DNA from: an uncultured Gemmatimonadaceae bacterium
GTDB lineage: Bacteria > Gemmatimonadota > Gemmatimonadetes > Gemmatimonadales > Gemmatimonadaceae
NCBI GenBank assembly: GCA_963817955.1
Contig: CAWFQK010000004.1
Location: forward strand, 1,280,001 to 1,344,000
Direction of reading: 5' to 3'
Length of the DNA: 64,000 bases
A program made the translations under genes and the position numbers. Shown piece by piece: positions 14,072 to 21,191 of the stretch. Position 1 is the first letter of the stretch; each line of letters begins with the position of its first letter. Below the pieces are notes generated by a model. It was not told where the DNA came from. It was given only the letters and a program-made list of their open reading frames with translations, and searched no databases.

Positions 14072-14659
14072 TTATCGAAGATCGGGATTGAGCTCGGGAG
14101 CTTTCAGCTCATCGTGACCGAGCTCACGCATGTCCGCCGCGCGTGGCGGTGCGCCGGTGATCATGGCCTTCATGGCATTGAAGAGCACGCGCGGCGTGCG
14201 ACGATCGTGTTTCGAGTACACCGCCGTGTCCGCCTGAACGAGAATGAGGCCGATGCGCGGATCGTGCGGGCCACCGTCGCGCCTGCCGTCCCCTTCGTCG
14301 CCGAGCCACATCTTCCAGTCGGGCTGATAGAGCGAGTCGATGAGATCGCGATCGCGCGACAGAATCGCATGGCCGCTCACACTCACCCACTCCTTGGAAC
14401 GGCTGTTGAAATACGACAGGTTCACGTGCGGATCGCGCGCGAGCTCTTCGTATTTCTCGCTCTCGATGTTGGTCATGAACCACAGGTCGGTGCCCGTGGT
14501 GCGGCGCTGCGTCTGCATTGGCCGCGACACGAGAGAACCATCGGCGCGACGCGTCGTCACCATGGCGGTTTCAATGCCGTCGATGAGCGAGTACAGGTCG
14601 TCGAGCTTGTTCGCGAGCGGGACTTCGTTGTCGTGGGATTTTTCGGCGGAGTCAGTCAT
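14072..14659 (-). CDS. General stress protein 26 / pyridoxamine 5'-phosphate oxidase-like
   Basis: AMVTT, LVSRPM, LWF, VNLSY, WVSVSG, DPRI. Confidence 0.85.
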   Translation of the reverse strand: MTDSAEKSHDNEVPLANKLDDLYSLIDGIETAMVTTRRADGSLVSRPMQTQRRTTGTDLWFMTNIESEKYEELARDPHVNLSYFNSRSKEWVSVSGHAILSRDRDLIDSLYQPDWKMWLGDEGDGRRDGGPHDPRIGLILVQADTAVYSKHDRRTPRVLFNAMKAMITGAPPRAADMRELGHDELKAPELNPDLR

Positions 14660-14661
14660 GG

Positions 14662-14709
14662 GTGTCATCCTGAGGGAGCGAGATCCTTCGCATTCGCTCA
14701 GGATGACAC
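14662..14709. repeat. Palindromic REP-like repeat (GTCATCCTGAG...CTCAGGATGAC), copy 1
   Basis: 13-bp arms GTGTCATCCTGAG / CTCAGGATGACAC; same family at 19782 and 48775. Confidence 0.85.
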
Positions 14710-14716
14710 GGCAGTT

Positions 14717-15202
14717 TCAATGCCGTAGGGCCATGACCGCTTCCTCGACATCGGCGGCGTGATTCTGTGGTTTCACCTTCTCGAAAACCGTCGCGATCCG
14801 ACCTCTGGGATCAATGACGAATGTCGTCCGGTTCACACCCCAATACCGTTTGCCGAGCATACTCTTTTCCGTCCACACACCGTACCGGTCGGCAATGGCA
14901 TGATCGGTGTCGGCGATCAGCCTGTACGGAAGCTGATATTTCGCTTTGAACTTGCGGTGCGACTCTACCGAGTCGGGACTCACACCGAGCACGACAGCAT
15001 CGAGTCCCTCGAACCGAGGGAGGGCGTCTCGAAACGAGCACGCCTCGATGGTTCAGCCGAAGGTGTTGTCCTTGGGATAGAAGAACAACACCACGACGCG
15101 GCCCTTGAAGTCCGAGAGCGACACGCGCTTGCCCTGGTCGTCGAGCGCCGTGAAATCGGGGGCCTTCACCCCCGTAGTCACCTGACTGATTGCATTGCCC
15201 AT
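14717..15202 (-). CDS. bcp: Peroxiredoxin BCP/PrxQ with in-frame TGA (15053-15055) at the peroxidatic Cys; probable selenoprotein, 161 aa
   Basis: ORFs 15053..15283 and 14717..14992 are one frame: KAPDF...[10 protein letters not shown](TGA)-TIEACSFRD...RTTFVID. Confidence 0.85.
14998..15050 (-). promoter_or_regulatory. Candidate SECIS / UGA-recoding RNA structure
   Basis: Starts 2 nt after the UGA; CAUCGAG/CUCGAUG stem enclosing two hairpins. Confidence 0.6.
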
Positions 15203-15324
15203 GAATCCATCCTGGCGTTGGCCGCAAGGTGGTTGTGGTCCTGTTCTGATGGACACACAGTGAACGGAGCAATTCGGTTGCATCTTGAGTGCCGTTTCCG
15301 TTCACCCGCTGGCGTGCGGAAGGC

Positions 15325-16233
15325 TTACAGCGGTTCCCCGCCCATGAGCGCGGCCATGATCGCCTTCTGGATGTGGAGCCGATTCTCAGCCTCATCCCAG
15401 ACCCGGCTCTGCGGCCCGTCAATGACCTCCGCGGCTACTTCCTCGCCGCGGTGCGCGGGTAGGCAGTGCAGGAAGATCGCGTTCTTATCGGCCTCTTTCA
15501 TCAGCTTGGAATTCACCGTGAATCCGGCGAACGCGCGCTCGCGATCTTTCTGCTCCTGCTCCTGGCCCATCGAGGCCCACACGTCGGTGCTGACGACGTG
15601 CGCTCCATGCGCCGCTTCCATGGGGTCCCGGAGGACGCGGACCTTTGCGACCGTCTGCGCGCGCTCGAGCAGACGGTCGGCCGGCTCGTAGCCTTCCGGA
15701 CAGGCTATATCGAGGTCGAAGCCAAATCGGTACGCCGCGTTGATCCAGGAGTTCGCCATGTTGTTGCCGTCGCCGATCCACGCATACTTCTTGTCGCGCA
15801 CCCCACCGAGATGCTGGCGCACCGTGAGCAGATCGGCGAGGACCTGGCAGGGATGCAGCAGATCGGTGAGGCCGTTGATCACCGGGACATCGGCGTACTT
15901 GGCCAATTCCACGATGTCCTGGTGCGCAAAGGTGCGGATCATGATGCCGTCCACATACCGCGACAAGACGCGCGCGGTGTCGGCGATCGGCTCCCCGCGA
16001 CCCAGTTGCACGTCGCGAGGCGAGAGAAAGAGGGCGTGCCCACCAAGCTGATAGGTGCCGGCCTCGAATGACACGCGCGTTCTCGTGCTCGACTTCATGA
16101 AGATCATCGCGAGCGTCTTTCCCGCCAGCGGCTTCTTGTTGTACTTCCCTTCGCGCATACACTCGGCGATGGCGAACAGTGAGTCGAGCTCGTCGGAAGA
16201 GAAGTCGGGAATGGCGAGGAAGTCGGAGGTCAT
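15325..16233 (-). CDS. argF: Ornithine carbamoyltransferase
   Basis: SSTRTRVSFE, HPCQ, GDGNN, DVWASMG, FLHCLP. Confidence 0.96.
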   Translation of the reverse strand: MTSDFLAIPDFSSDELDSLFAIAECMREGKYNKKPLAGKTLAMIFMKSSTRTRVSFEAGTYQLGGHALFLSPRDVQLGRGEPIADTARVLSRYVDGIMIRTFAHQDIVELAKYADVPVINGLTDLLHPCQVLADLLTVRQHLGGVRDKKYAWIGDGNNMANSWINAAYRFGFDLDIACPEGYEPADRLLERAQTVAKVRVLRDPMEAAHGAHVVSTDVWASMGQEQEQKDRERAFAGFTVNSKLMKEADKNAIFLHCLPAHRGEEVAAEVIDGPQSRVWDEAENRLHIQKAIMAALMGGEPL

Positions 16234-16265
16234 GTGGGGGCGGGTTGCTGGTGGAGACGACAACG

Positions 16266-19776: not shown

Positions 19777-21191
19777 GCGGGGAGATCCTTCGCTTCGCTC
19801 AGGATGACAGGCTGGGGTTCGCTCAGGATGACGGGCTGGATATGGTGCTCGTCACGCCATGCGTGCAGGTCCGCCAGCGCGCGTGCGGCAAGCTGTTCGC
19901 GCTTGAGACGCTTGTCCTTCACACGGACCGGGAGATCGTCGACCAGGCCGAAGTTCGCGTTCATGGGTTGAAAATGCGCCGGATCCGCTTCGCGCACATA
20001 TCGGTACAACGCACCAAGCATGGTCGTGGTCGGCGGTACGACGGCCGTCTCGCCCCGCAGCAAGCGTGAGAGATTGATGCCGGCCATCAACCCGGTGGCC
20101 GTGCTCTCGGTATAACCCTCGACGCCGGTGAGCTGGCCCGCGAACAGCGTTAGCGGATCGTCGCGCAACGCCAAATGGGGCGACAACGACGCAGGCGAAT
20201 TCACGTACGAGTTCCGATGGATGGATCCGTAGCGCAGAAATTCAGCGTTCTCCAATCCAGGAATCATGCGGAACACGCGCGCCTGCTCGGGAATGCGCAG
20301 ACGGGTCTGGAATCCGACAATGTTCCACATCCGGCCGCCGCGGTCTTCCATGCGGAGTTGTACGATGGCGTACGCGTCGCGACCGGTGCGCGGATCGCGC
20401 AGCCCCACCGGCTTCATGGGACCGAACCGCAGCGTCTCCCGTCCGCGCTTCGCCATTTCCTCAGCCGGCATACACCCGTCGAAGTATGGCGCCTGGTCGA
20501 ACTCGTGGCCGTGGTGCTGGTCGGCTTCGATCAGCGCATCGAGGAACGCCTCGTATTGCTCGCGCGTGAATGGGCAGTTGAGGTACGCTCCTTCCTGAGC
20601 CTCATCACCGTCGGCGCCACCTGACATGGTCTCCTTGCCATACCGTGAGGCACGGAAGACGATGTCGTGATCGATGGAGTCGCGGGCGACGATCGGCGCG
20701 ATCGCATCATAAAAAGCCAGCGACGACACACCGAGGCGCTGACGAATGGCGTCGGCGAGCACATCCGATGTCAGTGGTCCGGTGGCAACGATGCCCGGGC
20801 TTGGCAGCGCAACAGCTTCCTCGCGCACCACGGCGATCCGCGGATGCGTCGTCACACGATCATTGACCGCGGCGGAGAACACATCGCGGTCTACCGTCAG
20901 TGCACTGCCGCCCGGCACGCGAGCCTCATCGGCCGCCCAGAGCACCACCGATCCCAACAGCCGCATCTCGGCTTTCAAGAGGCCGTGCGCATTTGAGGTC
21001 TCGGTGCTCTTGAACGTGTTCGAGCAGACCAGCTCGGCAAGCCGCTCCGTCTTGTGAGCAGGCGTTCCCCGTACGCCGCGCATCTCGTGAAGCACGACGT
21101 CGTGTGCGCGCTCAGCAAGCTGCCACGCAGCCTCGCTGCCAGCGAGGCCGCCACCGACGATATGCACTGGATTGGTAGAAGAGTTGGTCAC
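19773..21191 (-). CDS. trmFO: tRNA m5U54 methyltransferase TrmFO (Gid)
   Basis: GGGLAGSEAAWQ, AELVCSN, FGPMKPVGL, GFQT, AGQLTGVEGY, FQPMNANFG; GTG start inferred. Confidence 0.95.
   Translation of the reverse strand: MTNSSTNPVHIVGGGLAGSEAAWQLAERAHDVVLHEMRGVRGTPAHKTERLAELVCSNTFKSTETSNAHGLLKAEMRLLGSVVLWAADEARVPGGSALTVDRDVFSAAVNDRVTTHPRIAVVREEAVALPSPGIVATGPLTSDVLADAIRQRLGVSSLAFYDAIAPIVARDSIDHDIVFRASRYGKETMSGGADGDEAQEGAYLNCPFTREQYEAFLDALIEADQHHGHEFDQAPYFDGCMPAEEMAKRGRETLRFGPMKPVGLRDPRTGRDAYAIVQLRMEDRGGRMWNIVGFQTRLRIPEQARVFRMIPGLENAEFLRYGSIHRNSYVNSPASLSPHLALRDDPLTLFAGQLTGVEGYTESTATGLMAGINLSRLLRGETAVVPPTTTMLGALYRYVREADPAHFQPMNANFGLVDDLPVRVKDKRLKREQLAARALADLHAWRDEHHIQPVILSEPQPVILSEAKDLPA
19782..19832. 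repeat. REP-like repeat, copy 2, inside the trmFO 3' end
   Basis: GAGATCCTTCGCTTCGCTCAGGATGACAG plus a second TTCGCTCAGGATGAC half. Confidence 0.85.

Follow-up and report, generated by a model that had tools for sequence, protein, structure and literature searches.

The window, i.e., the whole stretch of 64,000 nucleotides analyzed here, from an uncultured bacterium of the family Gemmatimonadaceae, contains a gene that is read as two separate open reading frames by standard gene calling. With a probability of roughly 0.94 it is instead one intact gene, encoding a cytoplasmic thiol peroxidase of the BCP/PrxQ type in which selenocysteine (Sec) would serve as the peroxidatic residue, decoded by means of a hairpin with a GUU loop. 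Judging by its sequence relatives, the gene belongs to a lineage of Sec-containing BCPs (Sec-BCPs) that is widespread in soil Gemmatimonadaceae. The protein is a new member of the Sec peroxiredoxin family already known in bacteria. The features of the gene are collected in Table 1.

Table 1. Features of the predicted Sec-BCP gene (positions are those of the window).
Feature	Position	Strand	Description
Coding sequence of the Sec-containing BCP/PrxQ peroxiredoxin (predicted)	14717..15202	minus	161 residues plus terminal TGA stop (14717-14719)
In-frame TGA, predicted Sec codon 50	15053..15055	minus	peroxidatic position of PxxxTxxU (P43, T47, U50)
TGC codon of Cys55	15038..15040	minus	resolving Cys, five residues past Sec (UxxxxC); from reading of the frame
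Hairpin 1, between the UGA and the SECIS loop	15023..15044	minus	from folding; over codons E-A-C-S-F-R-D-A
Hairpin 2, SECIS hairpin proper (predicted)	15005..15021	minus	stem of 7 bp capped by a GUU loop (alternatively, 6 bp and a GGUUC loop); codons 61-67

Under translation table 11 the coding sequence is split, within the same frame, into an ORF of 76 aa that stops at the TGA (15053..15283) and an ORF of 91 aa with a GTG start (14717..14992), this GTG restart being placed 21 codons past the internal TGA. Read as a whole, the frame comprises 162 codons (including the terminal TGA) and, exactly as claimed in the original prediction, the TGA at 15053-15055 is its sole interruption. The likely start codon is the ATG at 15200-15202, from where homologues begin, and conservation is absent at an alternative upstream ATG (15281-15283). 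The sequence context of codon 50 is FYPKDNTFG-[TGA]-TIEAC.

The read-through product matches the Pfam family AhpC-TSA (PF00578) with 145.4 bits (cut-off 26; E 1e-42) over residues 11-137, i.e., in a region spanning the TGA, as well as the NCBIfam model NF006960 (thioredoxin-dependent thiol peroxidase Bcp) with 153.2 bits, which is above the equivalog cut-off of 140. In the alignment with the best-matching solved BCP structure (PDB 5enu; E 5.9e-37, 148 alignable residues) the TGA coincides with the peroxidatic Cys, the position to which it had been assigned from the letters of the sequence. The active-site motif is thus P43-K-D-N-T47-F-G-U50, with U replacing the C of PxxxTxxC, and the Arg of the NRTTFVID stretch aligns with the catalytic Arg of 5enu. 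The resolving Cys expected five residues after the UGA was also found (Cys55). The protein is of approximately 160 aa and its N-terminus is without signal-peptide-like features. There are four AhpC-TSA matches in the genome, and an internal stop is present in this gene alone.

Comparison with the Cys-type Bcp/PrxQ proteins (NF006960; 5enu, 3drn and 3gkk) revealed a shared FYPKDNT-G-C/U-T motif, a shared Arg of the R-T/S-TF-ID stretch and a CP-x4-CR spacing equal to that of the Gemmatimonadaceae protein. The two differ in the peroxidatic codon, which is UGC or UGU in the former and UGA in the latter, and in the predicted SECIS embedded in codons 61-67 of the gene described here. Sec peroxiredoxin (PF00578, TxxU) is named among the verified prokaryotic selenoproteins in the selenoprotein list of PMC13188914, where PrxU of Eubacterium acidaminophilum is given as the prototype (Sohling et al., 2001), and the figures given for peroxiredoxins (Prx) by Zhang et al. 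(2006; PMC1794560) include 12 Sec Prx in bacterial genomes. The Gemmatimonadaceae protein has in common with this bacterial selenoprotein family (i) the AhpC-TSA fold family, (ii) Sec at the peroxidatic position of PxxxTxxU, (iii) the existence of Cys-containing orthologues, and (iv) an in-frame UGA whose SECIS lies within the coding sequence. It is, however, no equivalog of PrxU (72 bits against the PrxU equivalog model NF040737, cut-off 270), but a short protein of the BCP/PrxQ type with a resolving Cys at +5. A literature search for a Sec-BCP of Gemmatimonadota, with subscription journals and supplements outside its scope, returned no paper.

The original prediction had pointed to close relatives, in which TGA and TGC might alternate at this codon; TGA and TGC/TGT do alternate, at exactly codon 50. 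Three sets of genomes were searched. Among the nearest genomes (61, including that of the window), 42 gave a match at E 1e-20 or better, and the best 30 loci of this set, with 60-73% protein identity, carry TGA (20 loci) or TGC/TGT (10 loci) at the peroxidatic codon. A scan of species-representative genomes returned 80 loci, 76 of them with the motif, comprising 17 TGA loci (5 of which duplicate earlier ones) and 59 Cys forms. All 17 TGA loci are titled Gemmatimonadaceae, Gemmatimonadales or Gemmatimonadota, and the 59 Cys forms originate from Gemmatimonadota and many other phyla. In a family-wide sample of 251 genomes, 160 gave a match at E 1e-30 or better, and one TGA was present in 57 of the 150 matches listed (12 are unlisted). 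Of these 57, 49 were fetched, seven had been verified already and one, an unpublished genome (G086), was left out. TGA was found at the peroxidatic codon in 45 of the 49 fetched loci; the other four are Cys forms, in which the TGA counted was the terminal one. The verified Sec-form genomes number 52 and represent 19 of the 77 genera sampled. When all loci were pooled, TGA was present at the peroxidatic codon in 82 (55-73% protein identity; those with a title all Gemmatimonadota) and TGC/TGT in 78, counts that overstate independent support, the relatives being kin.

The genomic neighborhood is also conserved. In 22 of 30 loci the gene immediately upstream is that of ornithine carbamoyltransferase (OTCase; argF), and 15 of the 30 have a PNPOx-like gene downstream. 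The argF-bcp order is common to Sec and Cys forms, and the two forms replace each other at this one conserved locus. Two separate Sec-form copies, both with the second of two hairpin variants (see below), were observed on contigs of a single MAG record (L070 and L077); these may be paralogues or strain mixtures.

Folding of the region downstream of the TGA predicted two hairpins (positions are counted here from the T of the TGA, which is 1). The putative SECIS, hairpin 2, occupies positions 35-51 (window 15021-15005); its stem of 7 bp carries a GUU loop, and its free energy is -10.0 kcal/mol. The distance from the UGA to its loop is 38 nt, or 37 nt when the closing G-C is counted as part of the loop. 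The consensus model of the bacterial SECIS (bSECISearch), in the form outlined in PMC13188914, has a loop of 3-9 nt, a stem of 4-16 bp, a G in the first two loop positions, a free energy of -7.5 kcal/mol or lower and a UGA-to-loop distance of 16-37 nt. Hairpin 2 fits this outline in loop length (3 nt), stem length (7 bp) and free energy, and its loop begins with G and then U, which also agrees with the outline. It differs in the spacing, which lies on or slightly beyond the upper bound, and in the presence of an extra, separate hairpin that fills the interval.

The pairing of hairpin 2 is strongly conserved among the Sec forms. In 30 distinct Sec sequences, 210 of 210 pair cells are standard pairs and three pairs are changed on both sides; in 500 column shuffles the covariation score was never reached, and pairing in slid registers does not exceed 76%. 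The pooled set of 82 Sec loci corresponds to 74 distinct 66-mers, in all 74 of which the GUU loop is present. Seven of seven pairs are formed in 80 of the 82 loci and six of seven in the other two. Variation among the 74 distinct sequences concerns pairs 36-50 (CG 60, UA 11, UG 3), 39-47 (UA 58, CG 16), 35-51 (UA 65, UG 3, CG 2, AU 2, unpaired 2) and 37-49 (CG 71, UG 2, UA 1), and there are compensatory changes at three or four pairs of the hairpin. None of the 78 Cys forms has all seven pairs. The hairpin is not a by-product of the protein sequence, since two Cys forms (L078 and L082) encoding the same PRFEG peptide with other synonymous codons form only 5 of the 7 pairs. The 11-nt core of the SECIS is present in a single copy in the genome and therefore is not a motif common to its selenoprotein genes. 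An Rfam scan of positions 14600-15300 (E up to 10) produced three chance-level matches only and no SECIS family, of which Rfam may hold none for bacteria. An outer helix (CAUCGAG/CUCGAUG), which appeared in the first fold, is retained by some of the type-A sequences and by none of type B; it was not counted in the element.

Hairpin 1 (positions 12-33; -11.6 kcal/mol, z -3.3) is more stable in the Sec forms, with a mean energy of -12.3 kcal/mol (n=74) vs. -5.2 in the Cys forms (n=78); the mean for the Cys forms of Gemmatimonadota is -5.6 (n=17). Its loop is located at the more usual distance of 17-21 nt, and it was considered as a candidate for the SECIS itself. This was ruled out by the lack of a conserved G in the loop, by a register that shifts among relatives, and by the ability of some Cys forms to fold the same hairpin. 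Hairpin 1 is more likely a spacer that compacts the distance of 37-38 nt.

The genome assembly (9 contigs, 4.53 Mb, 64% G+C, 94% completeness) encodes the Sec machinery, all four components of which had been named in the original prediction as genes to be sought. These are (i) a tRNA-Sec, detected by aragorn and with Rfam (73.8 bits vs. a threshold of 47), (ii) selD (376 bits), adjoining the tRNA-Sec gene, (iii) selA (545 bits), and (iv) selB (346.5 bits, with the match extending over two stretches), the matches to the three protein-coding genes all being above the curated cut-offs. The selD gene (G000:C4:449339-450454, outside the window) is itself interrupted by an in-frame TGA at the canonical position (CAG-U-AAK). 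Another in-frame TGA was found at the canonical CNRT-U-HAPS site of a gene for an FdhA-like molybdopterin oxidoreductase (G000:C4:1425968-1427830, minus strand, outside the window), with a GGUCU-loop hairpin 17-19 nt downstream of it; this gene is probably the second or third selenoprotein gene of the genome. As selD, the fdhA-like gene and bcp each carry an in-frame TGA, no fewer than three selenoprotein candidates are encoded in the genome. Loops of the G-G/U kind, comparable to that of the bcp SECIS, are present at 16-19 nt in selD and in the fdhA-like gene. The aragorn search also reported a second, permuted "tmRNA*" (G000:C4:845718-846306) overlapping a tRNA-Ser gene, which is probably a false call because a regular tmRNA is present at C4:250485-250840.

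Among the relatives, selA was detected in 52 of 61 genomes, including 17 of 20 Sec-form genomes, and most Cys-form genomes keep it too. The three Sec-form genomes with no selA match are 87, 69, and 73% complete. The presence of Sec in the protein, which was the core of the original prediction, is supported by this machinery, by the alternation of TGA with TGC/TGT and by the covarying SECIS hairpin.

UGA is the leakiest of the stop codons, and it could be argued that the TGA is read through without Sec, either by near-cognate insertion of Trp or Cys or because the codon has been reassigned. We consider this very improbable. TGA is not reassigned, since it terminates the bcp gene itself and many of its orthologues and since the sole tRNA with a UCA anticodon found by aragorn is the tRNA-Sec. 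A Trp residue at the peroxidatic site of a peroxiredoxin would be inactive, and the conserved hairpin agrees with the SelB-type SECIS model.

For the 95 codons downstream of the TGA, comparison with 19 Sec relatives gave a median dN/dS of 0.21 (maximum 0.31) at dS of approximately 1, the same range as for the Cys forms; these codons are under purifying selection. This bears directly on the view that the gene is a pseudogene, in which a nonsense mutation of TGC or TGT to TGA has killed a Cys-BCP, so that only a 49-residue stub or the 91-residue C-terminal fragment is made. Such an origin would require one base change from a Cys codon, it would account for the two ORFs under table 11, and the other, stop-free AhpC-TSA genes of the genome could cover the lost function. 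A dead gene is nevertheless extremely hard to reconcile with the retention of the same TGA in 82 divergent loci, with the low dN/dS downstream of it, with a covarying hairpin specific to the Sec forms that follows it, and with the full Sec machinery in the genome.

The mis-annotation foreseen for the gene is supported in the form of truncation. In the public protein collection it is present only as a 91-aa C-terminal fragment (P0002). Among the best 120 of 795 protein matches, 82 are likewise fragments (86-122 aa), several of them named peroxiredoxin Q/BCP by their source. Within the same 120 matches, 73 of the 82 fragments have their first residue three or four positions ahead of the SPD motif, some 20-21 residues past the Sec codon, their commonest N-termini being M/V-(V)-LGVSPD, and the long matches have Cys at the active site in 36 of 38 cases.

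The sequence was also found in four soil-metagenome DNA runs of two studies (shares of 0.20 or less; assembled contigs only, none of the runs being RNA). A contig of run X2 covers positions 14925-15070 and is identical at 15053-15055. Run X3, which belongs to another study, contains related contigs for positions 14997-15066, whose only differences are at three wobble positions (15029, 15032, and 15035). The examination of raw reads that had originally been proposed was thus realized at the level of contigs, X1 and X2 being possibly the source sample, and in the contigs that cover the TGA its three letters are unchanged. A sequencing or assembly error giving TGA for TGC/TGT, for which a single-base difference in a 9-contig assembly of 94% completeness would suffice, has a negligible probability in view of these contigs and of 81 other loci, assembled independently, in which this codon is likewise TGA.

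A palindromic element with 13-nt arms and a 22-nt center is located between the stop codon of the peroxiredoxin gene and the next gene (14662-14709), and overlaps the first listed start codon of the latter. Its 11-nt arm occurs genome-wide in 82 copies on one strand and 96 on the other, and within the window also near 19798/19822 and 48777/48797. The element is probably a REP-like dispersed repeat, since contigs of the soil metagenomes pile up there (depth up to 290).

The evolution of the Sec and Cys forms was followed on a quick tree of 101 rows, with the Sec/Cys site masked. The Sec forms fall into two Gemmatimonadota clades, which match the two hairpin variants. The Sec label changes 9 times on this tree, with at least 3 changes forced by well-supported branches; the directions of change are tentative, since they were read from the quick tree alone. 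One Cys form (L048, from genome G020, in which selA is kept) is the sister lineage of a clade comprising six Sec forms, in a grouping that is mostly Sec (10 of 12), and carries a SECIS relic in which two bases differ and 5 of the 7 pairs are formed. Its position together with this relic points to a Sec-to-Cys reversal, which looks like a recent one. In their account of Prx, Zhang et al. (2006; PMC1794560) report five Cys-to-Sec and no Sec-to-Cys events, and link the Sec forms to anaerobes, whereas the host described here is a soil member of Gemmatimonadaceae, whose genome contains three full haem-copper oxidase subunit I genes.

The Sec and Cys forms also differ in the resolving residue. A Cys at +5 is present in 61 of the 82 Sec forms vs. 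75 of 78 Cys forms, so that 21 of the former (with S, T, R, V or L in its place; e.g., L050, L052, L136, L137, L139, and L150) and 3 of the latter lack the resolving residue. This suggests that Sec forms may be able to work without a resolving Cys, an observation that, because the loci are kin, constitutes a lead and not an independent test. The peroxiredoxin evolves clearly faster than its neighbor, given its 60-73% identity to orthologues at the same loci vs. 78-88% for OTCase (15325-16263). Compared with known systems, the Sec-BCP is mildly unusual in three respects: the long UGA-to-loop spacing with an intervening hairpin, the repeated switching between Sec and Cys, and a resolving Cys that Sec forms have often lost.

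From the parts found in the genome, a plausible course of decoding and catalysis can be proposed for the Sec-containing enzyme. SelB carrying Sec-tRNA(Sec) would bind the GUU-loop hairpin 37-38 nt downstream of the UGA, inside the coding region, and would deliver Sec to the UGA at codon 50, with hairpin 1 probably shortening the effective distance between the UGA and the SECIS. By analogy with the family, P43, T47, and the conserved Arg would position the U50 selenolate, which would reduce the peroxide and be converted into a selenenic acid. If the steps known from Cys homologues apply, Cys55 would then resolve the selenenic acid, forming an intramolecular selenenylsulfide, and thioredoxin would reduce the latter.

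A broader reading of the data is possible, but we hold it only tentatively and would sooner bet against it as a whole. According to it, the SECIS consists of two parts, namely an obligatory spacer hairpin and, behind it, a hairpin with the invariant GUU loop that is as far from the UGA as the known distances extend, in a large lineage of cytoplasmic Sec-BCPs of aerobic soil Gemmatimonadaceae, in which Sec would have reverted to Cys several times with the Sec machinery kept, and in which Sec would have made the resolving Cys dispensable. If true, this dispensability would permit a catalytic cycle with one Sec.

The Sec-BCP leaves knowledge of the Sec decoding mechanism itself unchanged. Its significance is that a common antioxidant enzyme of an abundant and little-studied soil phylum would depend on selenium. 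Since standard gene calling leaves C-terminal stubs, as in 82 of the 120 nearest proteins, annotation pipelines and surveys of the use of selenium in soil would under-count Sec-BCPs. The lineage also provides a naturally occurring set of Sec and Cys orthologues matched by locus, of which some have and others lack the resolving Cys and which includes a graded SECIS relic; it may therefore be useful for asking what Sec gives to a peroxiredoxin and how far from the UGA a bacterial SECIS may be located.
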